Assembly: GCA_963831815.1 (NCBI GenBank)
Contig: CAWHRL010000001.1
Coordinates: 135,827-199,826, forward strand
Direction: 5' to 3'
From: Vulcanimicrobiota bacterium
GTDB taxonomy: Bacteria; Vulcanimicrobiota; Vulcanimicrobiia; Vulcanimicrobiales; Vulcanimicrobiaceae
Length of the DNA stretch: 64,000 nt
Positions 8,353 through 64,000 of this stretch are shown piece after piece (the stretch's first letter is position 1; each line of letters opens with the position of its first letter). Both the position numbers and the translations under genes were made by a program. The notes beneath the pieces are model-generated. The model was not told the DNA's origin. It saw only the letters and a program-made list of their open reading frames with translations, and did no database searches.

Positions 8353-9249
8353 CTACCGACCTGCGCGCTCTGCCGCTTTGACGACGTTTCGCAACAGCGC
8401 GACGTTCGTAACGGGGCCGACGCCGCCGGGTACCGGCGTGATCGCGCCGGCGACTGTGACGGCGCTTTCAAAGTCGACGTCTCCGCGTAAGACGCCGTCG
8501 ACGATCGTGGTTCCGACGTCAATGACGGTCGCGCCCGGCATCAAGTCGCTTCCGCGTATCAAGCCGGGAGTTCCGGATGCAACGACGACGATCTCCGCCA
8601 TCTTGACGTATGGCCGAAGATCGCCCGATTTGCTGTGAACCATCGTGACCGTTGCATCCTCTGCGAGCATCAGCAATGCGACCGGTTTTCCCACCACTAT
8701 AGATCGTCCAATCACTACGGCAGGGCGGCCTCGGAGCGGCCAGTGCGGGCTGCGTTCGAGCAGCAGCATGACCGCGGCCGGAGTCGCCGGCACGTACTCA
8801 GTTCCACTGCCGAACGCCAAGTGGGCCTGGTTCGTCGGATTCGTGCCGTCGACGTCTTTGTGAACCGGAATGGCGTCGGCGATCTCGCGAATCCGAAGAT
8901 GCGGCGGAAGCGGCTGCGCCAGCATGACGCCGTGGACGCTTGCGTCACCGTGGAGGTCTTCGAGTCGCGCGCGTATCTGCGACTGCGTAGCGCGTTCGAG
9001 GAGCCGATCCACGACCACGCCGACGCCGACTCGCTCGCCGGTTCGTTCGAGGTTTCTCACGTAAGCAAGGCTCGATTCGTTCTCTCCGACGAAGACGACG
9101 ACGAGCTTGGGAGGAACGCCCGTCTCGCGCAACGAGCCGGTACGCGCGATCAGCTCCGTGCGGAGATCGGCCGCTAGACTTCTTCCGTCGAGAATCAAGG
9201 CAGGCACGCCGTCGCCGTTTCGTTTGCCGAAGGATAGGAACCTCGGCAT
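8353..9249 (-). CDS. folD: Bifunctional methylenetetrahydrofolate dehydrogenase/cyclohydrolase FolD
   Basis: 298 aa from the ATG at 9249. Motifs include LVVVFVGENESSLAYVRN, VDGTNPTNQ, PATPAAVMLLLE, VVIGRSIVVGKPVALL and ITPVPGGVGPVT. The 447-aa track ORF has an implausible Arg-rich N-terminal extension. Confidence 0.92.
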   Translation of the reverse strand: MPRFLSFGKRNGDGVPALILDGRSLAADLRTELIARTGSLRETGVPPKLVVVFVGENESSLAYVRNLERTGERVGVGVVVDRLLERATQSQIRARLEDLHGDASVHGVMLAQPLPPHLRIREIADAIPVHKDVDGTNPTNQAHLAFGSGTEYVPATPAAVMLLLERSPHWPLRGRPAVVIGRSIVVGKPVALLMLAEDATVTMVHSKSGDLRPYVKMAEIVVVASGTPGLIRGSDLMPGATVIDVGTTIVDGVLRGDVDFESAVTVAGAITPVPGGVGPVTNVALLRNVVKAAERAGR

Positions 9250-9269
9250 GCCGCAGTTCGGGAGACTAA

Positions 9270-9800: not shown

Positions 9801-10768
9801 GTGGGTTGCTCGTGGCCGCGCTGGTCATCGTTGGTGCGGTCGCTCTCGAGATTCTGCTTCCGGGGCAAGCGGTCTATCATGCCGGATGGTACAATGTAGC
9901 GCTCGGTGCGGTAGTCGCGGTCGCGCTTATCGCCGGGCGGCGGCTCTTTCGCCGAGCGACCTCATCGCGCGCGCGGATTGCCGTTGCTGCGGTTGCACTC
10001 GGTGCGGCCATCGCCGGATTCGCGGGCATCGCGAGCGGACTACTGGCACCCGATAATCAAACCGTCATCGGCGCGCCCGGAGCACGCGTCGCCGTGCAAT
10101 CGCTCGGCGTTCTCGCCTTTCCACTCACGTCGACCGACGCCCGGACGAGCGGCTCGGTCACGCTCGTTCGCCCGCTCGGAGGACCAATCGCGATCGGAGA
10201 GCGTGCACGGGATGCGGGTAACTTCATCCTGCGGACGATCTCGCGCAGTGTCGCTTACGTCGAAGCGCGCGATCTGCGAGGGAATCGCTTGACGATCACG
10301 CAGCCGGAAGGCGCGGCGTTTCTGTCGCCCGTGCTGTTGCTCGAACATCGTCAAACGATCGCCGGGATAGATCTTCCTTACGATTCGTTCAACGTTCCGG
10401 CGGCACGGCGAGTCGTCAAAGCGGTCATGTTCACTCCGGCGCAGGCGGCGATGTTGCTGCACGGCGGCGCGAACTCCGGCGAGGCGGCCGTCCTCTTTGC
10501 GGTTGATGACGAGAACGAACGGCCGTTGCCGCACGCGATTGCGCTGAGCGCGGGAGGGCGAGCTGCGCGCGCCGGCGGTCTCTCGTTGCGAGCGGTCGTC
10601 GCTGCGTATCCAGCGGTCGAAGTCGTCGCGGCTCCCAATCTCTTTGCGACGGTCTTTGGGACGCTGCTGATGATTGGCGGCGTAGTCGGTCTACTGACCG
10701 GCGACGATCGCGCGAACGTTTCGCAGCACGATGCTGCCCTGCGACAGCTCGACGCCCTTGGGCGGTAA
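9797..10768 (+). CDS. Hypothetical membrane protein with ResB-like topology (N-terminal TM helices, a periplasmic domain, a C-terminal TM helix)
   Basis: The in-frame TTG at 9797 overlaps the tlpA stop. Hydrophobic helices are LLVAALVIVGAVALEILL, VALGAVVAVALIAG, AVAAVALGAAIAGFAGIA and ATVFGTLLMIGGVVGLL. The earlier part of track ORF 9476.. overlaps tlpA in another frame. The family assignment is tentative. Confidence 0.5.
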   Translation: MSGLLVAALVIVGAVALEILLPGQAVYHAGWYNVALGAVVAVALIAGRRLFRRATSSRARIAVAAVALGAAIAGFAGIASGLLAPDNQTVIGAPGARVAVQSLGVLAFPLTSTDARTSGSVTLVRPLGGPIAIGERARDAGNFILRTISRSVAYVEARDLRGNRLTITQPEGAAFLSPVLLLEHRQTIAGIDLPYDSFNVPAARRVVKAVMFTPAQAAMLLHGGANSGEAAVLFAVDDENERPLPHAIALSAGGRAARAGGLSLRAVVAAYPAVEVVAAPNLFATVFGTLLMIGGVVGLLTGDDRANVSQHDAALRQLDALGR

Positions 10769-50722: not shown

Positions 50723-51817
50723 GTGACGATCTGGCAGATTCTGATCGTCGTCGCACTCGGCGTTGCGTACGGTCTCATCGAGCCCGGGCGCTTAACGTAT
50801 GCGTTCGGCCACGCCACGCTGTACGTGTTTCTTCCCGCGCTGCTCTTCGAGGCAGCGTGGAATCTGAACTATCGAGCAATCGTGCGCCAGTGGGTCGCGA
50901 TTGCGACGCTCGCCGGGCCAGGCGTATTGTTGACCGCGGGGCTCGTTGCGGGCGCGCTATCGATCGTTCGCGTGCCTCTTGGACCCGCGCTGTTGACTGG
51001 CGCGATTCTCAGCGCGACCGACCCGATCGCAGTGGTGGCGATCTTTCGGCGGTTGAAAGCCCCGAAGACGCTGATAACGATCGTCGAGTGCGAATCGCTT
51101 TTTAACGATGCTGTGGCCGTCGTACTCTATCGCAGCGTGCTCGTTGCGCTTGCGTTGGGAGCGGCCAGCGGAGGTGCGATCGCGCTAGTGGCGGTCGGCA
51201 CGCTGGTCGGAGCCGTCGGGGGAATCGCGCTTGGCATCGCCATCGCATTCCTCCTGGCGAGCCTGCTGCGCCAGCGCGCAGATGCTGTGATTCAAATAGG
51301 CGCGACGATGATCTGCGCGTACGGCGCCTATTTTGCGGCCGACGCTCTGCGGCTTTCGGGCATCTTCGCGACAATTGCGTGCGGCATCGCGCTTCGATAT
51401 TACGAGCGCTCCTGGATCACGCTGCGGATCGCGGATGACGTCAACCGTTTCTGGGACGTTGCGGCGCTGCTCGCCAACGTGCTGGTCTTCTTTTTGGTCG
51501 GTGCCGCCTTGGAGATCGGTCGTGTTGCGCAGGAACCACTCTTTGTGGTGGCGTGCATCGTGGCGATCGCGGTAGCCCGCGTCGTCGTTGCGGGGCTGCT
51601 CTTGCCCTGTCCGTATCCACGCGAATGGATCAACGTGATCCGCGTCGCGGGAATGCGAGGCGCACTGTCGCTGGCGCTTGCATTGGCGATTCCACTCGGT
51701 GTGGCATACCGCAACGCGATTATCGACGCGACGTTTGCCGTCGCGCTGGCCACCTTGACGGCAGCCAGCCTTACAGTCACTTCGACGGTAAAACGAGCGG
51801 TTGCGAGCCGGAGGTAA
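50723..51817 (+). CDS. Cation:proton antiporter, CPA1/NhaP type
   Basis: LLFEAAWNLN, GAILSATDPIAVVAIF and ECESLFNDAVAVVLY are typical Na+/H+ exchanger motifs. Confidence 0.85.
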   Translation: MTIWQILIVVALGVAYGLIEPGRLTYAFGHATLYVFLPALLFEAAWNLNYRAIVRQWVAIATLAGPGVLLTAGLVAGALSIVRVPLGPALLTGAILSATDPIAVVAIFRRLKAPKTLITIVECESLFNDAVAVVLYRSVLVALALGAASGGAIALVAVGTLVGAVGGIALGIAIAFLLASLLRQRADAVIQIGATMICAYGAYFAADALRLSGIFATIACGIALRYYERSWITLRIADDVNRFWDVAALLANVLVFFLVGAALEIGRVAQEPLFVVACIVAIAVARVVVAGLLLPCPYPREWINVIRVAGMRGALSLALALAIPLGVAYRNAIIDATFAVALATLTAASLTVTSTVKRAVASRR

Positions 51818-51823
51818 TCAACC

Positions 51824-52048
51824 GTGAGACCATTGGATGCTTTCGGACTCGCTGCGGTCAGCGCGATGCTCGTTACTTACGCATTGGAAAAACGGAGCCC
51901 GTGGTTTATCCTCGGGTTTGCGGTCGCCTGCGCCTTGGGTTCGATCTACGGCTTCCTGCAAGGAGCTTGGCCCTTCGGGATCGTTGAGGGCGTGTGGGCG
52001 ATGGTCGCGCTGTGGCGTTGGCGACATTCGTTGGACACGTCCGTTTAG
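51824..52048 (+). CDS. Small hydrophobic membrane protein (three predicted helices), function unknown
   Basis: 74 aa, LAAVSAMLVTYALEKRSPWFILGFAVACALGSIYGFLQGAWPFGIVEGVWAMVALWRW. It starts 7 nt after the antiporter stop. Confidence 0.5.
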   Translation: MRPLDAFGLAAVSAMLVTYALEKRSPWFILGFAVACALGSIYGFLQGAWPFGIVEGVWAMVALWRWRHSLDTSV

Positions 52049-53727
52049 AACGTCATACCCCGCTGGAGCTCGAAATGCTCGGCTATTGGGCCGAGCAGAT
52101 CGGCCGGAAGAAATGTCAAAGCCCCGACCAATAGGATCACGCCGACCAGCAGCGCGACGAAGAGCGTATTGTCCGTTCTGAACGTGCCCACATGCGAAAG
52201 GTCGTTCGTCGGCCTCGCCGCGAGCGACCCGGCGAGGGCGAGCGTGGGAATCATCACCAGGAACCTTCCGCCGAGCATTATCAATCCGGTCGCGATTTCA
52301 TAGAAGACGTTCGCTCCGAGACCGGCGAAGGCCGATCCGTTGTTTGCCGCACCCGACGCGAATGCGTAAAGCATTTCGCTGAAGCCGTGCGGCCCGGAGT
52401 TCCCGAGCGTCGCCGTGCCCTGCGGTATGACGACCGCGACCGCGGTCGCAAAGAGGATGATGCACGGAAAGGTGAGCACCGCAAGCATTGCAAACTGCAC
52501 TTCACGCCGTTCGATCTTCTTTCCGAGGTACTCGGGCGTGCGTCCTACCATCAGACCCGCCAAGAAGACGGTGACCACCACGAAGACCAACATTCCGTAG
52601 AGGCCGCTGCCCACGCCGCCGAAGATGATCTCCGCTAGCTCGAGATTCAGCAGCGCGAAGAATCCTCCGAGCGGAGTGAGCGAATCGTACGCAAAGTTCG
52701 ACGATCCCGTGCCCGAGTCGGTTGCAACCGCAAGTGAAAGCCCGGCGTTGACGACGCCAAACCGCACCTCTTTGCCCTCCATGTTACCACCGTGAACTGC
52801 CATGGCGTGGACGATTGGATTTCCAGCCTGTTCGGAGAGCTGCGCTCCGACAAACGACCCGACGCCGAGCACGAGCATCGTGACGAGCAGCGCTCGGCCC
52901 GCACGCGCGTTACCGGTCATCCGGCCGAAGAGCAGTGGAAAGGCTGTAGAGATCAGCCAGATGGCTAAGAGTTCGAGTAGATTCGAGACGCCGTTGGGGT
53001 TTTCGTTCGGCGACGCCGAGTTCGCGCCGACGAAGCCGCCGCCGTTGCCGCCCAGCAGTTTCGGCGCTTCCTGCGATGCGATCGGGCCGCCGGTGATACT
53101 CTGCGCGAAGCCTTCCGCATTGGTTACCGCGAGGTAGCGCGAGAAGTTTTGAGGTATACCCTGCGACGCGTAGAGTAGCCCGAAGAACGCGCATAGCGGC
53201 AGCAAGACGTAGAAGAGACTTCGCACGCAATCGACCCAGAAGTTCCCGAGCGTCGCGCTGTTTCTACGCGCGAAGCCTCGAATGACGGCAATACCCGCGG
53301 CCAGGCCGATCGCGCCCGCCACGAAATTGAGCCACGCCAACGCCGCCATCTGCGAGAGATAGCTCATAGTGCTTTCGCCGGAGTAGAACTGCCAGTCGGT
53401 CGTCGTGACGAAGCTGACAGCGGTGTTCCAGGCTATCCACGGAGCGACGTTCGGAAAACCTTGGGGGTTGAAGAAATGTCCGTGCCACTGCTGGGTACGC
53501 ATGACTGCGTAAGCGGCCAAGGTCGTGACGAGCGATAGCGCGATCGCGGCGAGAGTATACTCGGCCCATCCCATTTCGCGCTTGGGGTCGATGCCGCAGC
53601 ATCGGTGTAGGGCCGTCTCGCCCCACAGGTGCAGACGCCCCTCGAATACCGCATGCAAGTACCGCGCGAGCGGCGAAGCCGCGACCAGGAGCAGCGCCAG
53701 GAAGACGACCGCGTTCAGCCAGGCCAC
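52045..53727 (-). CDS. KdpA-family protein: a second, divergent paralog not linked to kdpB/kdpC
   Basis: It is 560 aa and full length, collinear with the kdpA at 56260..57960 (WNTAVSF...WQFYSGE..MSYLSQMA, NGGGF, FGGVGSGLYGM, ANNGSAFAGLG). It has substitutions in filter loops 1-3 (see findings). It has a GTG start and no obvious SD sequence. Confidence 0.9.
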   Translation of the reverse strand: MAWLNAVVFLALLLVAASPLARYLHAVFEGRLHLWGETALHRCCGIDPKREMGWAEYTLAAIALSLVTTLAAYAVMRTQQWHGHFFNPQGFPNVAPWIAWNTAVSFVTTTDWQFYSGESTMSYLSQMAALAWLNFVAGAIGLAAGIAVIRGFARRNSATLGNFWVDCVRSLFYVLLPLCAFFGLLYASQGIPQNFSRYLAVTNAEGFAQSITGGPIASQEAPKLLGGNGGGFVGANSASPNENPNGVSNLLELLAIWLISTAFPLLFGRMTGNARAGRALLVTMLVLGVGSFVGAQLSEQAGNPIVHAMAVHGGNMEGKEVRFGVVNAGLSLAVATDSGTGSSNFAYDSLTPLGGFFALLNLELAEIIFGGVGSGLYGMLVFVVVTVFLAGLMVGRTPEYLGKKIERREVQFAMLAVLTFPCIILFATAVAVVIPQGTATLGNSGPHGFSEMLYAFASGAANNGSAFAGLGANVFYEIATGLIMLGGRFLVMIPTLALAGSLAARPTNDLSHVGTFRTDNTLFVALLVGVILLVGALTFLPADLLGPIAEHFELQRGMTF

Positions 53728-53774
53728 CAGAACGCAATTATATGAGGATCATCGTGCCTGCGGCAGCGTCCTAA

Positions 53775-53786
53775 CGGATGATCCGA
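53775..53786. promoter_or_regulatory. 12-mer motif copy (minus strand TCGGATCATCCG) between amt and the kdpA paralog
   Basis: It matches 11 of 12 positions of the two copies at 55999 and 56024. It also forms the 3' arm of an 8-bp inverted repeat, GGATCATC (53746-53753) / GATGATCC (53777-53784). Confidence 0.3.
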
Positions 53787-55043
53787 TCAGATCCCGAGCG
53801 GATAGGCCTCCTCACCGTGCAGCGCGACGTCGAGCCCGTGCTCCTCGGCAACCTCATCCACCTTGACGGGCGTCACCAAGTTGATCAACCATAGCATCGC
53901 ATACGTAAAGACGAAGGCCCAGCTGCTGCAGACGACGGCCGCGACGAACTGCTTACCGAGAAACGCGGGATTCCCGCGAAGGAGGCCGTCGGCACCGTTG
54001 GGGTCCCACAACGTGGACGCGAAAACGCCCAGCAGGACGATGCCCAAGAATCCACCGACTCCGTGTACGCCCCAAACGTCCAGCGCATCATCCCAGCCGA
54101 GCTGATTCTTGAGAGTGACCGCAAAGTAGCAGAGGACTCCTGCGGCGATTCCGATGATCACCGCCGTCGTGGGCGAAACATAGCCCGCGGCCGGCGTGAT
54201 CGTTGCGAGGCCGGCGACCGCGCCGGTCAGCAAACCGACGAATTTCGGCTGACGTCCGCGAGCCCATTCGACGAAGAGCCACGTAATTGCCGCGAACGAG
54301 GCTGCAATATCGGTGTTGAGAAATGCGGAGGCCGTCACCGAATCGACGCGAAGCTCGGATCCGGCGTTGAAGCCGTACCAGCCGAACCAAAGCAGACCCG
54401 TCCCTAGTGCGATGAGCGGAACGTTGTGTGGTCTGTTGTCGACTACGTGACGCCTGCCGACGTAAAGCACGGATGCCAGGGCCGCAAAACCGGCCGAGGC
54501 GTGCACGACGAGACCACCTGCGAAATCGAGCACTCCCCACGTCGCGAGCAGGCCATGGGGACTCCACAGCATGTGTACGAATGGAAAATAGACGAAGACC
54601 AGCCAGAGGGTTAAAAACAAGAAGTACGCTTTAAACGTTACGCGATTTGCGAACGCCCCAGTGATCAGCGCGGGGGTGATGATCGCAAACATCATTTGAT
54701 ACGCGATGTGCGCGACTAGCGGGATGGCGGCATCGTTCCCGGTAAACATCGTATGCAGCGTCACTCCCCGTAAGAAGGCGTACGTCCCCGGGTTGCCGAT
54801 GATGCCGTGCCAGTCCGCCCCGAAACTTTCCGAGTAACCGAAGGCGAACCAGATAACTGTCGTCCATCCGAGCGACATAAAGCTCTGCATCATGATGGTA
54901 AGCACGTTCTTGCGCTGGACCAGCCCACCATAGAAAAACGCGAGCCCCGGAGTCATGAGCATGACAAGACTCGCGCAGAGCAGCATAAAGCCGGTGTTCC
55001 CGATATTGACGGTAGTACTCATAGCGTGCGCCGTTAGGCGCAC
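53787..55043 (-). CDS. amt: Ammonium transporter (Amt/MEP family)
   Basis: NTGFMLLCASLVMLMTPGLAFFYGGLV, VHASAGFAALA, WFGWYGFNAGS and DVWGVHGVGG are classical Amt signatures. Confidence 0.93.
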   Translation of the reverse strand: MRLTAHAMSTTVNIGNTGFMLLCASLVMLMTPGLAFFYGGLVQRKNVLTIMMQSFMSLGWTTVIWFAFGYSESFGADWHGIIGNPGTYAFLRGVTLHTMFTGNDAAIPLVAHIAYQMMFAIITPALITGAFANRVTFKAYFLFLTLWLVFVYFPFVHMLWSPHGLLATWGVLDFAGGLVVHASAGFAALASVLYVGRRHVVDNRPHNVPLIALGTGLLWFGWYGFNAGSELRVDSVTASAFLNTDIAASFAAITWLFVEWARGRQPKFVGLLTGAVAGLATITPAAGYVSPTTAVIIGIAAGVLCYFAVTLKNQLGWDDALDVWGVHGVGGFLGIVLLGVFASTLWDPNGADGLLRGNPAFLGKQFVAAVVCSSWAFVFTYAMLWLINLVTPVKVDEVAEEHGLDVALHGEEAYPLGI

Positions 55044-55079
55044 GCTATGTTTTTCCCGCTCGCGAGCTGGTTCGTGAGG

Positions 55080-55952
55080 CTAGTTCATGAAGGAGAGGCC
55101 GGCTCCCACGTAATGCTGTTTCTGGCCGTTGATTAGCGTCGGCGAGAAGCCGTACTCGACGTCGAACTGCAGGTGGCCGCCAAAGTCGCGCTGGTAGACG
55201 AAGTCGAAAAGGTTCTTCGAGCCAAGCCCGGGACCCGCCGCGGAGAAATAGGCGTACTCCGCAGAGATCTGAGACGGGCCTCCCGGCAGCGCCGCGCTGA
55301 GCTCCAAGCTCGGAATGAAGGCAAAATACGACTGGAACGCGCCGACCGAGTTTGCCGCGCTCAACGCGTTGAAGCTAAGCGTACCCGCGAGGCTGAACTC
55401 CGAATTGATCGTGTAGGCCCCATTGAAATCGCCTGTGAACTCGGCGTTTCCAGCCGTGAAGGCGTGACTCCCAGTCGGATAGGTAATCGCGCCGTACACG
55501 CCCCAGTCGGCTTTCGAGTTGAAACCGAGTTCGTATTTCGTGGCAAGAGTCACGTCGCTCGATCCGCTCACCCGCGGTCCGCCGACCGACGACGTTTCGG
55601 CGCTCGGAAAACTGAACTCAAAATCGAGGTGAGGGTCGGCGGTACCGACTCTGAGCACCGACTGCGGGTAAATCGCATTGCTGCCGCCTCCGACTCCGGT
55701 GAACGTCGTGTTCGTATAACCGTTCTCGAGCAGAAAATGGCCGGGCCGCACCGTGCAGACGCCCGTCGATACCGTAGGGCGATTCACGATCGAGAGGAGC
55801 GACCCGCACGGGTCGCTAGGCGCGCTCGGCGTCGGTGACGGCGAGGCGATCGGCGAAGCCGAAGGCGAGGGCGTTTGAGCGCTCGCGCCGCCGGCGCCGG
55901 CGGCGAGTCCCCAAACGAGAGCCGCTCCGGCGAAAAGCGTTGTACGATTCAT
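55080..55952 (-). CDS. Outer-membrane beta-barrel protein (MetA/phenol-degradation-like transporter or porin family)
   Basis: It has a signal peptide (MNRTTLFAGAALVWGLAAGAGGASA) and a Pro/Ser-rich linker. These are followed by alternating amphipathic strands starting RPTVSTGVCTVRPGHFLLENGYT. The family call is tentative. Confidence 0.55.
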   Translation of the reverse strand: MNRTTLFAGAALVWGLAAGAGGASAQTPSPSASPIASPSPTPSAPSDPCGSLLSIVNRPTVSTGVCTVRPGHFLLENGYTNTTFTGVGGGSNAIYPQSVLRVGTADPHLDFEFSFPSAETSSVGGPRVSGSSDVTLATKYELGFNSKADWGVYGAITYPTGSHAFTAGNAEFTGDFNGAYTINSEFSLAGTLSFNALSAANSVGAFQSYFAFIPSLELSAALPGGPSQISAEYAYFSAAGPGLGSKNLFDFVYQRDFGGHLQFDVEYGFSPTLINGQKQHYVGAGLSFMN

Positions 55953-55998
55953 GGCGCTGCCATTATAGAACCCAACGGAAAAATCCAGCAGCCGTCAC

Positions 55999-56035
55999 TC
56001 GGATCATCCATCCGGCTATCCTTTCGGATCATCCA
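55999..56035. promoter_or_regulatory. Two direct copies of TCGGATCATCCA (55999-56010, 56024-56035) in the divergent porin-amt / kdpF promoter region
   Basis: The 12-mer is repeated exactly, 25 bp apart. Each copy contains the GGAT-N-ATCC palindrome. This is the only intergenic DNA between the two divergently transcribed operons. Confidence 0.35.
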
Positions 56036-56079
56036 AACGACGGGTGGCACGCGTGCCTAGCGTCGGCTATGCTGAGCGC

Positions 56080-56166
56080 GTGCTCCTGGAGATTGGAATC
56101 ATCGCGCTGTCAATCGTCTGTTTTGTCGTCCTCGACCTTTACGTCCTCGGTTGCGAGAAGGTATAG
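56080..56166 (+). CDS. KdpF-like hydrophobic micro-ORF (28 aa) chained upstream of kdpF
   Basis: My own translation from the GTG at 56080 is VLLEIGIIALSIVCFVVLDLYVLGCEKV*. It is a single TM helix with a Y-x-x-x-x-E-K-hydrophobic C-terminus, like KdpF. Its stop is 3 nt before the kdpF start. Confidence 0.35.
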   Translation: MLLEIGIIALSIVCFVVLDLYVLGCEKV

Positions 56167-56169
56167 GCC

Positions 56170-56259
56170 GTGGGCTTCGATGACGCGCTCGGCCTCGTAC
56201 TTACCGTTGCCGGACTGGCCTATCTCGTTTTTGCCATGCTGCGGCCGGAGAGGTTCTAG
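56170..56259 (+). CDS. kdpF: K+-transporting ATPase subunit F
   Basis: My own translation from the GTG at 56170 is VGFDDALGLVLTVAGLAYLVFAMLRPERF*. It is 29 aa with the KdpF-typical YL..A.LRPE(K/R)F end. The stop TAG abuts the kdpA ATG at 56260. Confidence 0.75.
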   Translation: MGFDDALGLVLTVAGLAYLVFAMLRPERF

Positions 56260-57960
56260 ATGACCGCGATCGGATGGGTACAAGCTCTCGTCTTCTTTCT
56301 CATCGTTCTCGCGCTGACCAAGCCGCTGGGCTTGTACATGGCGCGCGTCTTCCAAGGCGAGCGCACTTGGCTTAGCCCCGTGTTGGTTCCGTTCGAAAAG
56401 CTGATCTACCGTCTTTGCGGCGTTCGCGAAGGTGAAGAGATGACGTGGTACGCCTACGCGCTTTCGATGCTCGCCTTTTCGCTGATCGGTCTCGGTTATC
56501 TCTACGTCTTGCTTCGCACGCAGAAATGGCTGCCATTCAATCCCGCGCACGTCGACAATATGACGCCGGACTTGGCGTGGAACACCGCGGTCAGCTTCAC
56601 TACGAACACGAACTGGCAGTTCTATTCCGGCGAAACCGCGATGAGCTATCTCTCGCAGATGGCGGGCCTGGCTTGGCATAACTTCGTCTCGGCTGCGGTT
56701 GGCATCGCGCTCGCGGTTGCGGTCGTCCGCGGTCTGGTGCGCACCAACGTCAAGACCCTCGGCAACTTTTGGGTGGATCTCACGCGCTGTTCGCTCTACG
56801 TGCTGCTTCCGATCTCGATTGTGGTCGGACTCTTTCTCGTTTCGCAAGGCGTACCGCAGAACTTTCACGCGTACCAAAGCGTAAAGTCGATCGAAGGCTT
56901 CGCTCAGACGATTACGGGCGGCCCGATGGCCTCGCAGGAAGTCATCAAAGAGCTCGGCACCAACGGCGGCGGGTTCGTCAACGCCAACTCGGCGTCGCCG
57001 AATGAGAATCCGACGCCGTTGAGCGACCTCGTGGAGCTGCTTTTAATCTTCTCGCTGGGGGCCGGGCTGACGTACATGTACGGCAAGATGGTCAAAGACA
57101 CGCGCCAAGGCTGGGCGATCTTCATAGCGATGGCAATTCTCTTCTTTGCGGGTTTCGCCGTCGCGTACTGGGCCGAGGCAGCCGGGAACCCTATCGTCCA
57201 TCAGTTGGGCGTTGCCGGTGCGAACATGGAGGGCAAAGAGTGCCGGTTCGGCATTCCGGCGTCGGCGCTCTTTGCAACGGTCACCACCGACACCTCGTGC
57301 GGTGCGGTGAACTCCATGCACGACTCCTTTACGGCGCTCGGCGGCCTCATTCCGTTGGTCGACATGCAGCTTGGCGAGATCGTTTTCGGCGGCGTCGGCA
57401 GCGGTCTCTACGGCATGATCGTCTTCGTCGTTTTGACCGTGTTCATTGCCGGTCTGATGGTCGGGCGAACGCCCGAATATCTTGGAAAGAAAGTCGAACG
57501 CCGCGAAGTCCAGTTTGCGATTCTGGCCGCCCTCGTTACGCCGGTACTTTGCCTCGTGCCGACCGCGATTGCGGCGGTACTGCCGGCCGGCTTGGCGACG
57601 CTCAATAACGGCGGCCCACACGGCTTTTCGGAGATCCTTTACGCCTTTACGTCGACCAACGCGAACAACGGCTCTGCCTTTGCGGGGTTGGGTCCGAATC
57701 TTTTCTACAACCTGCTGACCGGCGTCAACATGATGTTCGGCCGGTTCGCGGTCGCCGTGCCGGCGCTCGCGCTGGCGGGAGCGCTCGCCGGTAAGAAGTC
57801 GGTCCCCGAAGGTCCGGGCACCTTCACAACGCACTCGGGCATCTTCGTCGCGCTGCTCATCGGCGTGATCGTGATCGTCGGAGCGCTCACATTTCTACCC
57901 GCCGACTCGCTCGGTCCGATCGTCGAACATCTGCTCATGCTGCAAGGAAAGACGTTCTAG
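56260..57960 (+). CDS. kdpA: K+-transporting ATPase subunit A
   Basis: 566 aa. Filter loops are SFTTNTNWQFYSGE, LGTNGGGF, TSCGAVNSMHDS and ANNGSAFAGLG. It is followed by kdpB and kdpC. Confidence 0.95.
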   Translation: MTAIGWVQALVFFLIVLALTKPLGLYMARVFQGERTWLSPVLVPFEKLIYRLCGVREGEEMTWYAYALSMLAFSLIGLGYLYVLLRTQKWLPFNPAHVDNMTPDLAWNTAVSFTTNTNWQFYSGETAMSYLSQMAGLAWHNFVSAAVGIALAVAVVRGLVRTNVKTLGNFWVDLTRCSLYVLLPISIVVGLFLVSQGVPQNFHAYQSVKSIEGFAQTITGGPMASQEVIKELGTNGGGFVNANSASPNENPTPLSDLVELLLIFSLGAGLTYMYGKMVKDTRQGWAIFIAMAILFFAGFAVAYWAEAAGNPIVHQLGVAGANMEGKECRFGIPASALFATVTTDTSCGAVNSMHDSFTALGGLIPLVDMQLGEIVFGGVGSGLYGMIVFVVLTVFIAGLMVGRTPEYLGKKVERREVQFAILAALVTPVLCLVPTAIAAVLPAGLATLNNGGPHGFSEILYAFTSTNANNGSAFAGLGPNLFYNLLTGVNMMFGRFAVAVPALALAGALAGKKSVPEGPGTFTTHSGIFVALLIGVIVIVGALTFLPADSLGPIVEHLLMLQGKTF

Positions 57961-57972
57961 GGATGGTCATTA

Positions 57973-60030
57973 ATGCTTAGTCAGCGGCGCTTGGAGCGAC
58001 GTCCGAAAGCTCGCCCGCTTTTGGACCGGCCGATTCTCACCCGCGCGTTCGCGGACTCGTTCGCGAAGCTCGATCCTCGCTGGCAAGCGCGCAACCCGGT
58101 GATGTTCGTGGTTGAGGTCGGTGCGGCGGCGACGACGATATTCTTCGTCCGCGACCTTCTGCGCCACACCGGCTCGCCGGGGTTCGACTTTGCGATCGCC
58201 GCGTGGCTTTGGTTTACGGTGCTATTTGCAAACTTCGCGGAGGCCGTCGCTGAAGGGCGAGGCAAAGCCCAAGCCGAGGCGCTGCGCCGCACGAAATCGG
58301 ACACATTCGCACGCTTGCTGCGTGCCGACGATACCGAGGAACGCGTCACAAGCACCAGCCTGCGCAAAGGCGACCGTTTCGTCGTCGAGGCGGACGAAAT
58401 CGTTCCCGCCGACGGGGACGTACTGGAAGGCGCGGCGACCATCGACGAATCGGCGATAACGGGCGAATCGGCTCCGGTCATCCGCGAGTCGGGCGGCGAT
58501 CGTAGCGCGGTGACCGGCGGCACGCGCGTGCTCTCCGACCGCATCGTCGCGCGCGTAACGGCAGATCCGGGCGAAAGCTTCCTCGATCGTATGATTCGCT
58601 TGGTAGAGGGCGCGCAGCGGCAGAAAACTCCAAACGAGATCGCGCTCTCCATTTTGCTGGCCGGCCTTACGATCATCTTCCTGATTGCGGTCGCCACGCT
58701 GGCTCCTTTTTCGCTTTACGCCAACACCCACCAAAGCGTCACCGTTCTGATTGCGTTGCTCGTCTGCCTCATTCCGACGACGATCGGAGGACTGCTCTCG
58801 GCAATCGGCATAGCGGGTATGGATCGCGTGATGCAGCGCAACGTCTTGGCGATGAGCGGTCGCGCCGTCGAAGCGGCCGGCGATGTCGACACGCTTTTGC
58901 TCGATAAGACCGGAACGATCACACTGGGCAACCGCCAGGCCGTCGAGATCATGACGTCTCCCGGCATTGATGCGCGCGATGCGGCGCGTATTGCCTACCT
59001 CTCCTCGCTCGCCGACGAAACTCCGGAGGGACGTTCGATCGTCGCGCTCGCGCAGCAGACCGGCGCGCGCGATGGCGAGGCGCCGGCCGGATCCGTTTTT
59101 GTTCCGTTCAGCGCCTACACGCGCATGAGCGGCCTCGACCTCGCCGACGGAACGAAAATTCGCAAGGGCGCTCCGGATTCGGTGCTTGCCTGGATCCGAG
59201 AGGCCGGCGGTAATCCGTCGAGCGACCTCACGCCCACGATCGAACGCATCGCTCGCAGCGGTGGAACGCCGCTATTGCTCGCTCGCAATACGCTGATCGT
59301 CGGCGTCATCTATCTCAAGGACATCTTGAAGCCGAACATGACCGAACGCTTCAGCCGGCTGCGTGCGATGGGGATTCGCACGGTGATGATTACGGGCGAC
59401 AATCCGCTTACCGCAGCGACGATCGCCAAGGAAGCCGGCGTCGACGACTTTCTAGCCGAGGCTACTCCAGAGACGAAGATGGAGCTCATCAAGCGCGAGC
59501 AGGGTTCGGGGCGGCTTGTTGCCATGACCGGGGACGGCACGAACGACGCGCCGGCGCTAGCTCAATCCGACGTCGGGGTGGCGATGAACTCCGGGACGCA
59601 AGCCGCAAAAGAAGCCGCGAACATGGTCGACCTCGATTCCGATCCGACCAAGCTGATCGAGATCGTCGAAATCGGCAAGCAGCTCTTGATGACGCGCGGC
59701 GCGCTTACCACTTTTTCGATCGCCAACGACGTAGCGAAATACTTTGCGATTCTGCCGGCGATGTTTGCGATCGCCTATCCTGCAATGGCCGTGCTCAACG
59801 TCATGCGCTTGACGACGCCGCAGAGCGCAATCCTCTCGGCAGTGATCTTCAACGCCCTCATTATCGTCGCCCTGATTCCGCTAGCCTTACGCGGCGTACG
59901 ATACGAACCCAAGGGCGCCAACCGCGTTCTCTTCGAGAACGTGATGCTCTATGGCGTCGGCGGGATCATCGTGCCATTCATCGGCATCAAGGTAATCGAT
60001 ATGATCCTTGCGGCGCTTCATCTGACATAG
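57973..60030 (+). CDS. kdpB: K+-transporting P-type ATPase subunit B
   Basis: DKTGTIT (phosphorylation site), [31 protein letters not shown]; 685 aa. Confidence 0.96.
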
Positions 60031-60045
60031 GAACGCAAAAAAAGC

Positions 60046-60621
60046 ATGATTAGCCATCTGGGCACGTCTCTGCGCGTAACGATCGTTTCAGTGATTCTGT
60101 TGGGGCTGATCTACCCGCTGGTGATGACCGTGCTCGCGCAGGTGATCTTTCCGCGGCAAGCCGAGGGCTCACCCGTTACGATCGACGGCAGGACGGTCGG
60201 CTCCGCCATCATCGGCCAGCTTTGGAGAAAACCGCAGTACTTTCATGGCCGGCCGTCGGCCGCCGGCAAAGGTTACGATCCCACCGCGACTGGCGGAACG
60301 AATTTGGGGCCGACGTCGAAAAAGCTGATCGATTCGACCAGAGCGACGATCGCCGCGCTGGAGAAGGAGAATCCCGATGCGAGCGGCTTGCCGCCAATGG
60401 ATTTAATAACCTCCGGCGGCAGCGGCATCGACCCGGACATCACGCCGGAGGCGGCGTACTGGCAAGCGCCGCGCGTCGCGAAGGCGCGGCAAATGAGCCT
60501 TGCGGCGGTTCGAGCGCTCGTAGGACGGCACGTGCGAGGTAGAACGTTCGGCTTTCTAGGCGAGCCGCGCGTCAACGTGCTCGAGATTAACCTCGCCCTG
60601 GACGGATTACAGCCGCAATAG
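60046..60621 (+). CDS. kdpC: K+-transporting ATPase subunit C
   Basis: It has an N-terminal TM helix, then FHGRPSAAG.GYDPTATGGTNLGP and ITSGGSGIDPDITPEAA, typical of KdpC. Confidence 0.93.
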   Translation: MISHLGTSLRVTIVSVILLGLIYPLVMTVLAQVIFPRQAEGSPVTIDGRTVGSAIIGQLWRKPQYFHGRPSAAGKGYDPTATGGTNLGPTSKKLIDSTRATIAALEKENPDASGLPPMDLITSGGSGIDPDITPEAAYWQAPRVAKARQMSLAAVRALVGRHVRGRTFGFLGEPRVNVLEINLALDGLQPQ

Positions 60622-60730: not shown

Positions 60731-60782
60731 CGACACTGCCCTCCTCTTGCGCTCCACTTGCTGCCGCGCAGAATGCACAGCG

Positions 60783-61217
60783 ATGAAGACTTACTACGTC
60801 TACATGCTGCTCTGCGCCGACGGATCATTCTACGTTGGAATTACAAACAATCTTGAGCTGCGGATCGGGCAGCATCAGTTTGGGATCGATCCCCGATGCT
60901 ATACGTTCAAGCGCCGGCCGTTTAAGCTCGTCCACTCATCAGACTTCCATAACGTGGACGAGGCGATCGGTTGGGAGAAGCAGCTCAAAGGTTGGTCCCG
61001 CGCCAAGAAACTTGCGCTAATCGGGAGTGACTGGAAGCTGATCCACGAACTTGCTGAATGCTCCAATCAAACCGCTGCGAGGTTTTACTCGCCCGTGTCG
61101 TCCTTCGACTCCGCTCAGGATGACACGGGCGTGGTTCGCGCTCGAGACGACGAAGTTTATCCCGAGCAAAGACGAGGGGGTCAGGGTGACACTGCCCTTC
61201 GACTCCGTTCAGGGTGA
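60783..61217 (+). CDS. GIY-YIG nuclease superfamily protein (small YhbQ/UPF0213-like type), with its C-terminal tail encoded by repeat DNA
   Basis: MKTYYVYMLLCADGSFYVGITNNLELRIGQHQ...YTFKRRPFKLVHSSDFHNVDEAIGWEKQLKGWSRAKK is the GIY-(10-11)-YVG motif with the R and E core. The tail ...SSFDSAQDDTG...GDTALRLRSG is translated from repeat copies e and f, so the true stop may be functionally irrelevant. Confidence 0.8.
   Translation: MKTYYVYMLLCADGSFYVGITNNLELRIGQHQFGIDPRCYTFKRRPFKLVHSSDFHNVDEAIGWEKQLKGWSRAKKLALIGSDWKLIHELAECSNQTAARFYSPVSSFDSAQDDTGVVRARDDEVYPEQRRGGQGDTALRLRSG
61102..61124. repeat. Dispersed core motif copy e (CCTTCGACTCCGCTCAGGATGAC), hairpin-flanked
   Basis: It is flanked by GCCCGTGTC ... 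GACACGGGC inverted arms, in reverse orientation relative to copies a, c and d. Confidence 0.85.
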
Positions 61218-61218: not shown

Positions 61219-61405
61219 ACTGCCTTTGACGACGCCCGCTTTGACGGCTGACCGGCTACTCGAGGGTGACACTGCCTTTGACGACGCCCGCTTTGACGGC
61301 TGACCGGCTACTCGAGGGCGACACTGCCTTTGACGACGCCCGCTTTGACGGCTGACCGGCTACTTGAGGGTGACACTGCCTTTGGCGGCTGACCCGCTAC
61401 TCGTC
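61212..61405. repeat. Tandem repeat with a 52-bp unit, three full copies plus a shortened fourth
   Basis: GGGTGACACTGCC recurs at 61212, 61264, 61316 (one G>C change) and 61368. The unit is GGGTGACACTGCCTTTGACGACGCCCGCTTTGACGGCTGACCGGCTACTCGA. The last unit lacks the internal CTTTGACG duplication and overlaps the stop of the kdpD-like ORF. Confidence 0.92.
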
Positions 61406-63529
61406 GGAGATGACGGAGGCGTCTGTTGCATTGCCGGGTGGTTGAAGAACGAGCAGTTCGCGAGCTCCGGCGTCGAGCAATCTGCGCGGAAATGCCGGAC
61501 GCTGCGGCCAACGTGAAGCATGTTGCGGACCCGCTACCGCAATCGTCGTTTCGGGACGCGACCGCGCCACGTCGAGCAATGCTTTCGGCACGTCTTCGGC
61601 AACGAGTTCGATCCACTCCGTGTTGGTCTTACGCGCTTCGGCCCGGAGCTTTTCGACGATTACGGAATCCACTTTTTCGCGCGGCGCGTTGACGTGAGCG
61701 ATCGCAAACTCAATCGCAAGACGCGCCGCGACTTTGCCCGCGCGCGCGACCATGGTGAGATCGACCTCGCGCGAACCGACTGCCAGCAGAATTCGCTCGA
61801 AGGGCGACGTTATTCGTTCGCGGTGGCGAGCGCGGAGCGCCTCGCGGAGTGCAAGCTCGCGCAGTGCGAAGAGATTTTCCGTGCGAAAGAAATTCGCGAG
61901 CGCCGCTTCGCAGCGTTCGGGCGGATAGATCTTTCCGTCGCGCAACCTCTGGCGTAGCGTCTCGGGCGTGACGTCGATGAGGATCACCTCGTCGGCGAGC
62001 GTCAGGATTCCGTCGGGCAGCGTTTCCCGGACGATCGTTCCGGTCAGCCGCAAGACCGTGTCGCCCAAACCTTCGAGATGTTGGACGTTGAGCGTCGTTA
62101 TCACGTCGATGCCCGCGCGGAGAACGGCCAGCACGTCGTAGAAGCGCTTGGGTGCAATCGAGCCCGGCGCGTTAGTATGCGCGAGCTCGTCGATCAACGC
62201 GACCTGAGGCTTTCGCGCGATAAGCGCATCGCGGTCGAATTCGCGGTAGGTCATACCGTTGACCGCGACGACCTTCGGCGGGATGACCTCCAAACCGTCG
62301 AGCAACGCCGCCGTTTCCTTCCGCCCATGTGTTTCGACGAAGCCCACCACAACGTCGATGCCATCCGCGCGAAGCTGGTGCGCGCGATCGAGCATCGCGT
62401 AAGTCTTTCCCGCTCCGGCGGCGGCGCCGATGTAGACGGTGAGCCTTCCGTAACCTACGCGCAGACGGTCCCCGGCGGTTTGCGAGTACGGCGAGCGCAC
62501 CGGATTCGCACCTAGATACGTTTGACCCGCGCCGACAATGAAAAGGTCGTACGGAAGCGGCAAGTTGGCGAGCTTCGCCGCAATTCGACCGTGGGGAAGC
62601 GCCACGAGCGACGCCCGTAGCGCGTCGCCGGGCAAACTTGACGGATCGAATGTTTCGTGGAGCATCTCGCCGCCCAGGTCGCGGCTGATGCGCTCGAGCG
62701 ACGCGCGATCTACGCCCGCAACCGCAACCACCTCGAGTCCAAGGTCGAGAGCCTGTGCGATCGCCGCCGTCCGCTTGAGGTACGCGATCTGATCGACGTT
62801 GGGGTAGACGAAGGCGGCCGCCATGGAGGTGCGGCCGTCCCTTACCGCCGGGAGCGTGAGGCTATCCACGGTGCGCAGCAGCAGCTCGCGGAGCATGTAG
62901 AGCGTCTGCTCTTTGAAGATTCCGTTTAGCGCACGCTCGATGTCCGCCTCGTTAACGATCTTCCCGGCCCTTACGCGGCTCTGGAGCAGGCGGGGCGAAA
63001 CGTCGAGCGCTACGACCTCGTCAGCGGCTTGCAGAAACGAGAGCGGGATGATTTCCCGCACCGGGAAGCCGATGAGCGACTCGACCGCCGGCGCCACGTT
63101 TTCGAGATGCTGAATGTTGAAGGCGCCGATGACTCCGATGCCGTGGTTCTTTAGCGCGAGCGCGTCTTGCCAGCGCTTCGCGTTCGTCGAATCGCCCAGA
63201 TTGTCGTGTGCGAGCTCGTCGAGAACGACGACGTCGGGCTTTTCGCGCAGCGCGGCCTCGTAATCGAAGTCCTCGAAGACGCGTTCCCCGAGCGTGACCC
63301 GCCGCGGCGCAATGCGAGGCAATCCCGCGGCTATGCGCTCGAGCTCCGGACGTCCCTTCGTCTCAATCCATCCGATGGCCACGCGTTTGCCGTCCGCAGC
63401 AAGGCGCCGCGCGTCTTCGAGCAGCCGTCGAGTCTTACCGGAACCGGGGGCGCTGGCGACATAAACGACGAGTCGCGGGCGACCGCCGATTTCGCGCAGC
63501 AGCTCTTCCGCTCGCGCCGTGCGATCCAT
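61397..63529 (-). CDS. KdpD-like sensor lacking TM and kinase domains: two tandem KdpD-N-terminal plus USP-like modules
   Basis: Module 1 has VVYVASAPGSGKT...GWIETKGRPE...VLDELAHDN...FNIQHLE. Module 2 has TVYIGAAAGAGKT...GFVETHGRKE...LIDELAHTN...LNVQHLE. Each is followed by a USP-like segment. No hydrophobic helices and no HisKA or HATPase motifs are visible. Confidence 0.85.
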   Translation of the reverse strand: MDRTARAEELLREIGGRPRLVVYVASAPGSGKTRRLLEDARRLAADGKRVAIGWIETKGRPELERIAAGLPRIAPRRVTLGERVFEDFDYEAALREKPDVVVLDELAHDNLGDSTNAKRWQDALALKNHGIGVIGAFNIQHLENVAPAVESLIGFPVREIIPLSFLQAADEVVALDVSPRLLQSRVRAGKIVNEADIERALNGIFKEQTLYMLRELLLRTVDSLTLPAVRDGRTSMAAAFVYPNVDQIAYLKRTAAIAQALDLGLEVVAVAGVDRASLERISRDLGGEMLHETFDPSSLPGDALRASLVALPHGRIAAKLANLPLPYDLFIVGAGQTYLGANPVRSPYSQTAGDRLRVGYGRLTVYIGAAAGAGKTYAMLDRAHQLRADGIDVVVGFVETHGRKETAALLDGLEVIPPKVVAVNGMTYREFDRDALIARKPQVALIDELAHTNAPGSIAPKRFYDVLAVLRAGIDVITTLNVQHLEGLGDTVLRLTGTIVRETLPDGILTLADEVILIDVTPETLRQRLRDGKIYPPERCEAALANFFRTENLFALRELALREALRARHRERITSPFERILLAVGSREVDLTMVARAGKVAARLAIEFAIAHVNAPREKVDSVIVEKLRAEARKTNTEWIELVAEDVPKALLDVARSRPETTIAVAGPQHASRWPQRPAFPRRLLDAGARELLVLQPPGNATDASVISDE

Positions 63530-63591
63530 CGCCGCCAGCCTTCTCCGCTTCAGGCAAGGCGCCCCCGCCGGTCGGCCCGAAAACGCGCGTG

Positions 63592-64000
63592 CGTGGCTTG
63601 GCTTTGTTACGGCTTACTCGCCCTCGCCTGGATCGTCGATCTCGTGACTCCGCAGCTTTTCATTGCGGCGATCTTGTTCAACGGACCGATCGCGCTCAGT
63701 AGCCTTGCGCTCCAGAGCAGACTGACCACCAACCTCGTGATCGTAGCCGAAATTGCGAACGTCGTCGCGGGGTACGTCAACGGAGTTCAAGCCGGCTATC
63801 ATTGGGACAGCATCGCGATCGGAGACCGGCTGCTCCTTGCCGCGTCTTTTGTGTTGGTCGGCTATTTGAGCGTCAAGACGCAGGAGTACGCTCGCGAGGC
63901 GGGAGTCTCGGCGGGGCGCATGCGCCAAGTAGAGATCGAAAAATCGCTTCGTGAGGCGACCGGCCGCGTGCGCGAAACGCTCAACGTCGAGCTCGTGCAG
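63592..64000 (+). CDS. Partial membrane protein (N-terminal TM bundle, then a coiled segment); possible sensor; the 3' end lies beyond the window
   Basis: My own translation from the GTG at 63592 is VAWLCYGLLALAWIVDLVTPQLFIAAILFNGPIALSSLAL...LVIVAEIANVVAGYV...LLLAASFVLVGYLSVKTQEYAREAG...EIEKSLREATGRVRETLNVELVQ. It is open to the window end and divergent from the kdpD-like gene. Confidence 0.45.

Follow-up and report, generated by a model that had tools for sequence, protein, structure and literature searches.

This analysis concerns a second, divergent KdpA encoded in a stretch of 64,000 nucleotides (nt) of contig CAWHRL010000001.1, which is called the window throughout. The gene, named kdpA2 here, occupies 52045..53727 on the minus strand, begins with a GTG codon, and encodes a 560-amino-acid (aa) paralog of KdpA with a remodelled selectivity filter. 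The protein is matched over its full length by the hidden Markov model (HMM) PF03814 (E = 4.7e-199; 662 bits, cut-off 22.6) and scores 592 bits with TIGR00680 (cut-off 387.7), compared to 739 bits for KdpA1, the canonical KdpA of the same locus, to which it is 55% identical in pairwise alignment. Upstream of kdpA2 on the same strand lie amt (53787..55043) and a gene for a candidate outer membrane protein (OMP; 55080..55952). An earlier interpretation made from the letters alone (the sequence-only reading) had delimited these three open reading frames (ORFs) exactly, and had described them as a porin-amt-kdpA operon carrying an orphan, divergent KdpA.

The sequence-only reading also observed that no kdpF, kdpB, or kdpC accompanies these genes, which is correct for their own transcription unit. 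However, a complete kdp operon begins on the opposite strand only 128 nt from the OMP start codon, in the order 28-aa ORF, kdpF, kdpA1, kdpB, and kdpC. All are plus-strand genes: kdpF (56170..56259) encodes 29 aa and was read from the sequence (its orthologs match PF09604), kdpA1 lies at 56260..57960 (PF03814 E = 3.9e-241), kdpB, for the P-type ATPase subunit, at 57973..60030 (TIGR01497, 1040 bits), and kdpC at 60046..60621 (PF02669 E = 1.6e-67). The first gene of the operon, directly upstream of kdpF, is a hydrophobic ORF (56080..56166; VLLEIGIIALSIVCFVVLDLYVLGCEKV) that is conserved in all Eremiobacterota kdp loci examined, including those that lack KdpA2, and is an annotated gene in L084 and L170 (related loci are denoted by L and a number). 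It may encode an extra small pump subunit or a leader peptide.

Amt is a canonical ammonium transporter of its family (PF00909 E = 1e-112; TIGR00836, 417 bits). Alignment to solved Amt structures gives A. fulgidus Amt-1 (2B2F) as its best solved relative and shows the twin-His motifs to be conserved. As the sequence-only reading had noted, amt is not followed by glnK; tblastn (E <= 1e-3, with an E. coli GlnK query) returned no P-II/GlnK match in the window or in 11 related loci. The OMP candidate (290 aa) has a signal peptide, a Pro/Ser linker, and ~14 predicted strands. This protein appears specific to Eremiobacterota: its 484 homologs are nearly all called hypothetical and are assigned to Cybelea or Eremiobacterota, and no Pfam or NCBIfam family was found for it, also when 26 members were scanned at E <= 1. 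Because its AlphaFold model is of low confidence (predicted local distance difference test [pLDDT] score of 56, ~14 beta strands), we place it only in the outer-membrane-barrel class; the structural matches of that model are outer membrane barrels exclusively (e.g., NanC, OmpG, and the COG4313 channel). Its earlier designation as a beta-barrel OMP is retained at the level of class, but no family can be attached to it.

The most distinctive aspect of KdpA2 is its selectivity filter, which was analyzed in E. coli KdpA numbering (through a map validated on landmark residues) by comparing 108 full-length members of the KdpA2 clade with 255 diverse canonical KdpA sequences. The substitutions N112T, N114D, T230G, T339A, C344T, and A346S are present in 100% of the clade, and I225P, S343G, V347S, and H351Y in 99%; N237G/A is variable (G in 65%, A in 31%) and also occurs in ~20% of canonical KdpA. 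Each of the changes that are 99 to 100% fixed is found in 2 to 11% of canonical sequences, with the exception of A346S (28%). The four core states T112, G230, G343, and S347, however, never occur more than two together in any canonical KdpA. The filter-loop strings quoted in the sequence-only reading (e.g., TTTDWQ versus TNTNWQ and LGGNGGGFVG versus LGTNGGGFVN) are exact in the alignment, as is its statement that three of the four loops are changed; P-loop 4 is canonical. We therefore reject normal KdpA variation as an explanation for the combination, which is unique, although not for the individual sites.

Several of the substituted positions have reported roles. According to structural and molecular dynamics work, the high-affinity site S3 is formed by carbonyls of N112, T113, T230, S343, C344, N466, and N467, and S4 by S343, S378, and N466 (bioRxiv 10.1101/2025.03.04.641403); S3 is the main determinant of KdpA affinity and selectivity (PMC12629597). 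Thus, the changes in KdpA2 fall exactly on the ion-coordinating scaffold, as S3 positions 112, 230, 343, and 344 and the S4 ligand 343 are replaced. Canonical proteins carry N (93%), T (82%), S (85%), and C (58%) at 112, 230, 343, and 344, whereas T112, G230, G343, and T344 are fixed at 99 to 100% in the KdpA2 clade. The filter gains two glycines (T230G and S343G) and, in P-loop 1, an Asp at position 114, which by register corresponds to G232, G345, and G468, the glycines of the filter. Those three glycines and the entrance residue Q116 are retained in all 108 members.

Outside the filter, KdpA2 has remained a KdpA. Its AlphaFold model (predicted template modelling [TM] score of 0.81, with filter loops at low confidence) reaches a TM score of 0.89 to E. 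coli KdpA (6HRA_A, 5MRW_A, and 7NNP_A) versus ~0.5 to KtrB/TrkH, and is thus predicted to have the KdpA fold, with 10 transmembrane helices and four membrane-pore-membrane (MPM) repeats, rather than that of KtrB/TrkH. Ninety of the 99 universally conserved KdpA positions are retained. Among the residues with reported roles in KdpB coupling and the tunnel (PMC6255902 and PMC12629597), E370 (99%), R400 (100%), R493 (100%), and V496 (97%) are kept, as are F386 (99%), L422 (99%), and V538 (97%) of the seal at the KdpB interface; at L389, I421, and L541 no residues other than Leu, Ile, and Val are found. The intramembrane loop GGVGSGLYG and the motif GRTPEYLGKK are conserved in ~100% of the clade. 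KdpA2 is a real, divergent paralog, as described in the sequence-only reading, and is under purifying selection: pairwise dN/dS (nonsynonymous to synonymous change) is ~0.12, versus ~0.085 for KdpA1 of the same genomes, values that are approximate because dS is saturated (above 1), and dN is ~2-fold higher for KdpA2.

KdpA2 is not peculiar to the window, which a genome scan assigns to Candidatus Eremiobacterota, among genomes that resemble Cybelea. The clade comprises at least 119 clusters in the protein database (71 to 100% identity, all simply named KdpA) from Cybelea-like Eremiobacterota, and is bounded by an identity gap, with no sequences between 71% and ~57%. It is monophyletic with 100% bootstrap support in a neighbor-joining tree of 242 KdpA sequences. 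The 50%-identity representatives included no separate full-length one for the KdpA2 clade; P0121 was found there, and led to a second paralog clade (~65 clusters), whose members carry the labels Lustribacter and Elarobacter. A scan of metagenome contigs with KdpA2 mostly picked up generic KdpA motifs; its matches, all of them canonical genes with <= 56% identity, were used as background. In the tree, by neighbor joining only, the P0121 clade is sister to the KdpA2 clade (53% bootstrap) and the two together are sister to the canonical KdpA1 of Eremiobacterota (50%). Both paralog clades have in common derived states that are rare in canonical KdpA (N112T, S140A, T339A, M350A, H351Y, and N513), and these argue for a single old duplication inside the phylum Eremiobacterota as the origin of both, although the bootstrap values for that placement are low. 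Horizontal acquisition of kdpA2 from another phylum is not favored, as the nearest relatives are the Eremiobacterota KdpA1 and P0121 sequences, at those same bootstrap values.

We compared gene neighborhoods at 11 KdpA2-clade loci with flanking sequence and at 4 sister-clade loci. At all 11 KdpA2 loci a complete divergent kdpFABC lies 0.3 to 5 kb from kdpA2, which is therefore not the orphan it was taken for. Every KdpA2 locus also holds at least one member of the 290-aa OMP family, and a gene for an NhaP antiporter keeps its position on the other side of kdpA2 in all of them. The position of amt is far less regular. Reading in the direction of transcription, the order is OMP-amt-kdpA2 in the window, L002, and L084, amt-kdpA2 in L004, kdpA2-amt in L165, and kdpA2-OMP-amt in L166, and in L001 kdpA2 stands alone between opposite-strand genes with amt nearby. 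No amt is present in L081 and L082 (OMP-kdpA2), in L168 (kdpA2-OMP), or in L083 and L167, where kdpA2 is followed by a gene for an RCK K+ channel. In the sister clade, L170 and L171 each have a lone gene that diverges from kdpFABC, with neither amt nor OMP, and the gene of L172 is >10 kb from any kdp gene; a complete divergent kdpFABC adjoins two of the three sister-clade loci with enough flank.

The genes linked to amt do form a group, as the sequence-only reading had proposed to find out by phylogeny, but it is a derived subclade inside the larger KdpA2 clade; basal KdpA2 lineages and the sister clade lack amt. Moreover, L005, from a Cybelea genome, has OMP-amt beside kdpFABC without KdpA2. 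We conclude from the neighborhoods that the robust partner of kdpA2 is kdpFABC, which is constant, and not the variable amt that had been regarded as its defining partner. None of the 15 paralog genes (11 KdpA2, 4 sister clade) is directly followed by kdpB, versus 122 of 122 canonical kdpA genes in other phyla. Orthologs placed next to their own kdpBC, which the sequence-only reading had named as a finding that would count against it, are not encountered as an operon arrangement.

Some individual loci deserve comment. The RCK channel of L083 (11728-13395), L167 (11692-13347), and L001 (9693-11396) is a protein of 550 to 567 aa with an Ion_trans_2 pore and TrkA_N (RCK) domains; in L083 and L167 its gene is co-oriented with kdpA2 and begins 3 to 38 nt downstream. 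Immediately before the sister-clade kdpA of L172 is a 42-aa ORF (9873-10001) with a hydrophobic segment that may loosely resemble the N-terminal transmembrane helix of KdpC. In L002, the closest relative (95% identity), kdpA2 has a 4-nt deletion inside the codons for EYLGKKIE (9150-9250), and its promoter (7932-7995) has a degraded operator core, GGATAGTCC, and a -10 box TATGAT. This gene is probably a recent pseudogene, the alternative being an assembly error in a long-read metagenome-assembled genome.

The upstream region of kdpA2 in the window contains a minus-strand TATAAT -10 box (53737..53742), read from the sequence, 9 nt before the GTG start, and a kdp-type operator on the same strand (53770..53790). 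The core of this operator, TCGGATCATCC (53776-53786), is 49 nt upstream of the start, and its left arm adjoins the amt stop codon. This exact 11-mer occurs three times in the 64-kb window, in each case at the kdp/kdpA2 locus. The other two copies are on the plus strand, at 55999..56009, 31 nt from the TATAAT box of the OMP-amt unit (55962..55967, minus strand, read from the sequence, 9 nt before the OMP ATG), and at 56024..56034, 33 nt upstream of the TATGCT -10-like box of the kdp operon (56068-56073, plus strand), which precedes the start of the 28-aa ORF by 6 nt. Comparison of orthologous upstream regions identifies the 11-mer as the core of a 21-bp palindrome, CCGAACGGATSATCCGTTCGG, of which the kdpA2 operator is an imperfect copy.

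The palindrome is present upstream of the kdp operon at all 11 KdpA2 loci and at the KdpA2-less L005, 33 nt before the TATGCT/TATCCT box that precedes the 28-aa ORF, and has no match at <= 3 mismatches in 2.02 Mb of loci from other phyla. At 9 of the 11 loci kdpA2 itself has the layout of a GGATSATCC core, 33 nt (32 in one), TATAAT, 8 to 10 nt, and the start codon, so that both promoter and operator are position-conserved to within 1 to 2 nt. Half-sites of the type CCGAACGGA recur upstream of the sister-clade genes, including the remote L172. A generic sigma-70 scan depends on a -35 box and for that reason detected no promoter within 51.7-56.4 kb. The minus strand showed no intrinsic terminator in the intervals that separate OMP, amt, and kdpA2, and thus read-through from amt into kdpA2 is possible; to that extent the proposed operon may hold. 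As kdpA2 has its own conserved promoter with the same operator as the pump genes, however, we consider it an independent transcription unit in the kdpFABC regulon.

Two further observations concern these promoters. At all three promoters of the locus the -10 box is only 6 to 10 nt before the start codon, which implies that the mRNAs are leaderless or nearly so, perhaps as a rule in these Eremiobacterota. The palindrome is also found before genes for BBP2-type (PF07642) porins in L001, L004, and L166; the sites before such genes or some small ORFs are at L001 7194, L004 6361, L166 9664 and 8107, L168 3019, and L083 6396. This suggests a small regulon of outer membrane channels that is co-controlled with the pump.

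How might a second KdpA be used? Based on its sequence features, we see about an even chance that KdpA2 belongs to the Kdp regulon as an alternative subunit with which KdpFBC selects its ion, and so confers a changed cation affinity or selectivity. Duplication of kdpA at the kdp locus in Eremiobacterota would have provided a second A subunit peculiar to this lineage. The near-leaderless promoter of kdpA2 is its own and carries the palindromic operator of kdpFABC, so that the gene would be switched on together with the pump genes. KdpA2 would then compete with KdpA1 for KdpF, KdpB, and KdpC and feed ions through the intersubunit tunnel to KdpB. We infer such assembly because the fold, the sealed intramembrane loop, the vestibule charges, the tunnel residues, and the contact of Arg400 with the KdpB P domain are all kept. 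The product would be a pump isoform whose remodelled filter alters cation affinity or selectivity. Most parsimoniously, this isoform transports K+ with a different affinity or with different discrimination against competing cations; acceptance of Rb+ or NH4+ is possible. The two options offered by the sequence-only reading, a subunit that plugs into KdpFBC and a stand-alone channel, are therefore unequal, the former being better supported.

Several points weigh against the use of KdpA2 as a pump subunit. The phylogenetic placement has bootstrap values of 50 to 53%, from neighbor joining only, and one sister-clade gene (L172) is remote from any kdp gene. Retention of the coupling residues could partly reflect structural constraint of the fold rather than interaction with KdpB, and the omega values share in the saturation of dS. 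Because kdpA2 is not translationally coupled to kdpB, co-induction would produce an excess of A subunits over B, C, and F. Finally, the apparent frameshift and degraded operator of L002 and the lack of the gene in L005 suggest that its function is dispensable.

Some of the same observations could be accommodated if KdpA2 acted without KdpB as a channel or uptake protein of the superfamily of K+ transporters (SKT), like KtrB or TrkH. It would then offer a second route of lower affinity, co-induced with the pump, by which the membrane potential drives K+ or some other monovalent cation, and nearby OMP or RCK-channel genes would be its functional partners. In keeping with this, kdpB, kdpC, and kdpF never follow kdpA2, the gene forms a transcription unit by itself in L001, L170, and L171 and lies far from kdp in L172, and stoichiometry speaks against a simple sharing of KdpB. 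Clade-specific bulky-to-small changes outside the filter (F291G, F335S, and Y299Q) could open a path, and the RCK-domain K+ channel gene is closely co-oriented downstream in L083 and L167. The channel encoded there and in L001 carries its own Ion_trans_2 pore. However, in every solved state of KdpFABC the pore of KdpA is closed off beneath the intramembrane loop, so that the tunnel to KdpB is the only way out for ions (PMC6255902). A channel that works without KdpB would not obviously require GGVGSGLYG, E370, R493, V496, R400, or the KdpB-facing seal, which are kept at 97 to 100%. The predicted fold resembles KdpA (TM 0.89) and not KtrB/TrkH (TM ~0.5), and in Cybelea kdpA2 is always beside kdpFABC, with the same operator. 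On balance, we regard an independent channel as rather unlikely.

A role tied to Amt, in which KdpA2 handles NH4+ under nitrogen limitation, is in our view quite unlikely. It might do so as the filter of an ATP-driven NH4+ pump (KdpFA2BC), or as a K+ filter that excludes NH4+ during ammonium scavenging. The arrangement of genes is suggestive, as amt adjoins kdpA2 in the window, L002, L004, L084, L165, and L166 and is nearby in L001, yet is within 8 to 9 kb of none of the 122 canonical kdp loci in other phyla, and as this Amt comes without GlnK. At S3 the ligands have changed, and the filter has acquired two glycines and an Asp. A single mutation, G232D, makes E. coli KdpFABC carry out coupled NH4+ and Rb+ transport, because KdpB is promiscuous and accepts NH4+ (PMC12629597), and yeast physiology links K+ limitation to the leakage of NH4+ through K+ pathways (PMC1609136). 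On the other hand, G232 is unchanged in KdpA2. The amt linkage is derived, and much of the filter signature is also present where this linkage is lacking, in the basal KdpA2 lineages and in the sister clade; the gene order around amt is shuffled, and L005 has OMP-amt at the same locus in the absence of KdpA2. The control region of kdpA2 comprises a kdp operator and its own promoter, and no nitrogen-type element was seen in it, though none was searched for. More doubtful again is the idea that, with KdpA2, the KdpFBC ATPase becomes a primary, ATP-driven pump that moves not K+ but another cation, of which NH4+ is the most plausible. If true, this would give nature its first known case of primary active transport of ammonium and of a P-type ATPase that changes its substrate via the swap of a channel-like subunit, and would allow ammonium scavenging alongside Amt in acidic, nutrient-poor peat soils.

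We consider it very improbable that KdpA2 is a redundant or decaying duplicate whose filter changes are neutral drift within normal KdpA variation. Each substitution does occur somewhere in canonical KdpA (2 to 28%), dN is 2-fold above that of KdpA1, L002 has a 4-nt frameshift and a degraded promoter, and L005 lacks the gene. Drift would not, however, readily account for a dN/dS of ~0.12 across lineages with saturated dS, for a signature that is 99 to 100% fixed in 108 proteins when no canonical KdpA has >2 of the 4 core changes, for a promoter and operator held in place within 1 to 2 nt, or for the persistence of at least 119 clusters plus a sister clade of ~65.

The genes that flank the locus include others related to cation transport and sensing. 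The NhaP-type cation/proton antiporter (50723..51817, plus strand; PF00999 E = 9e-50) is the constant right-hand neighbor of kdpA2 in Cybelea loci. After it, a small ORF (~51834-52060, plus strand), noted by eye, probably encodes a membrane protein of ~75 aa and converges on, or overlaps, the 3' end of kdpA2. Beyond kdpC is an ORF with a GIY-YIG domain (60747-61217, plus strand), which separates it from a KdpD-like gene; because only the window and its closest relative, L002, have this ORF, it is probably a recent insertion. The KdpD-like gene (61397..63529, minus strand) encodes a non-kinase sensor with two tandem KdpD N-terminal domains (PF02702 in two stretches; NF038185 at 489 bits, under its cut-off of 550). 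Beside it begins a separate membrane histidine kinase gene (~63550-64000, plus strand), cut by the end of the window, and in related loci a Response_reg+GerE regulator follows that kinase. Together, these proteins constitute a non-canonical Kdp signalling module, and its NarL/GerE-type response regulator is probably the protein that binds the operator.

To our knowledge a sensor-type role for a KdpA has no precedent, and the least probable explanation of all is a nontransport function, in which KdpA2 reports external cations to this KdpD-like/histidine kinase/response regulator module as a K+-binding sensor or regulator, or sequesters KdpB/KdpC: it would suit the co-regulation with, and proximity to, such unusual sensors (a tandem KdpD N-domain protein without a kinase and a separate histidine kinase) and the excess of A over B subunits expected on co-induction, but the full conservation of the tunnel, vestibule, and coupling residues has a simpler explanation in transport.

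KdpFABC, in which a channel-like subunit is combined with a P-type ATPase, is the textbook example of such a hybrid, and current interest centers on the specificity of the KdpA filter versus the promiscuity of KdpB. A natural, widespread second KdpA with rebuilt S3/S4 sites, intact KdpB-coupling residues, and the operator of the pump would be new for this class of pumps, and suggests interchangeable ion-selecting subunits, that is, a swappable-subunit version of a known pump. The set N112T, N114D, I225P, T230G, S343G, C344T, A346S, and V347S is a filter already tested by evolution that could be transplanted into E. coli KdpA as a probe of affinity and selectivity. At the level of physiology, the locus suggests that the Eremiobacterota of acidic soils, which are largely uncultured, have a compact regulon for cation homeostasis, consisting of the pump, the second A subunit, and outer membrane barrels, with Amt or an RCK channel in some genomes. 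Should KdpA2 act alone instead, it would demonstrate that reversion from a KdpA to a channel or transporter is possible. The sequence-only reading knew of no amt-linked orphan KdpA, and we likewise found no published description of a second or orphan KdpA, nor of an isoform-type subunit pair for Kdp, in the searchable literature.

Compared to canonical KdpA (E. coli; PDB 5MRW, 6HRA, and 7NNL), KdpA2 matches the same family HMM, with a predicted fold at TM 0.89 and 45% identity and with the four MPM repeats. Like canonical KdpA it has the filter residues G232, G345, G468, and Q116, the vestibule pair E370/R493, the tunnel residue V496, the KdpB contacts R400, F386, L422, and V538, and the D3M2 loop. 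In two respects it departs from what is expected of the family, namely in its position, since kdpA2 lies outside the kdpFABC operon, never before kdpB and with its own promoter, and in its S3/S4 ligands (N112T, T230G, S343G, and C344T, in addition to N114D, I225P, A346S, V347S, and H351Y). Its nonsynonymous change is also ~2-fold faster. The E. coli mutants G232D and Q116R, in which filter substitutions alone shift whole-pump affinity and ion range (Rb+ and NH4+) while coupling to KdpB is kept (PMC12629597), are a mechanistic model for what a natural filter variant could do. Unlike these mutants, KdpA2 keeps G232 and Q116 and has multiple, naturally fixed changes elsewhere in the filter.

The neighboring genes and the subunit pair each have their own counterparts. 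As in amtB-glnK operons and porin-amt pairs, a canonical twin-His Amt is encoded here, with an outer membrane barrel gene before amt. In contrast to amtB-glnK operons, glnK is lacking from the window, and the OMP-amt unit is located in the divergent promoter region of kdp and shares its operator core. TrkG and TrkH of E. coli K-12 use the same TrkA regulatory subunit. They differ from the proposed KdpA1/KdpA2 pair in belonging to a different SKT branch, in having an RCK ring rather than a P-type ATPase as the partner, and in that trkG is prophage-borne and not adjacent to trkH. Nevertheless, as paralogous ion-conducting SKT subunits that serve one shared machinery and for which distinct ion-transport activities are reported (PMC9898762), TrkG and TrkH are the closest functional analogy to the proposed Kdp pump with two alternative A subunits.

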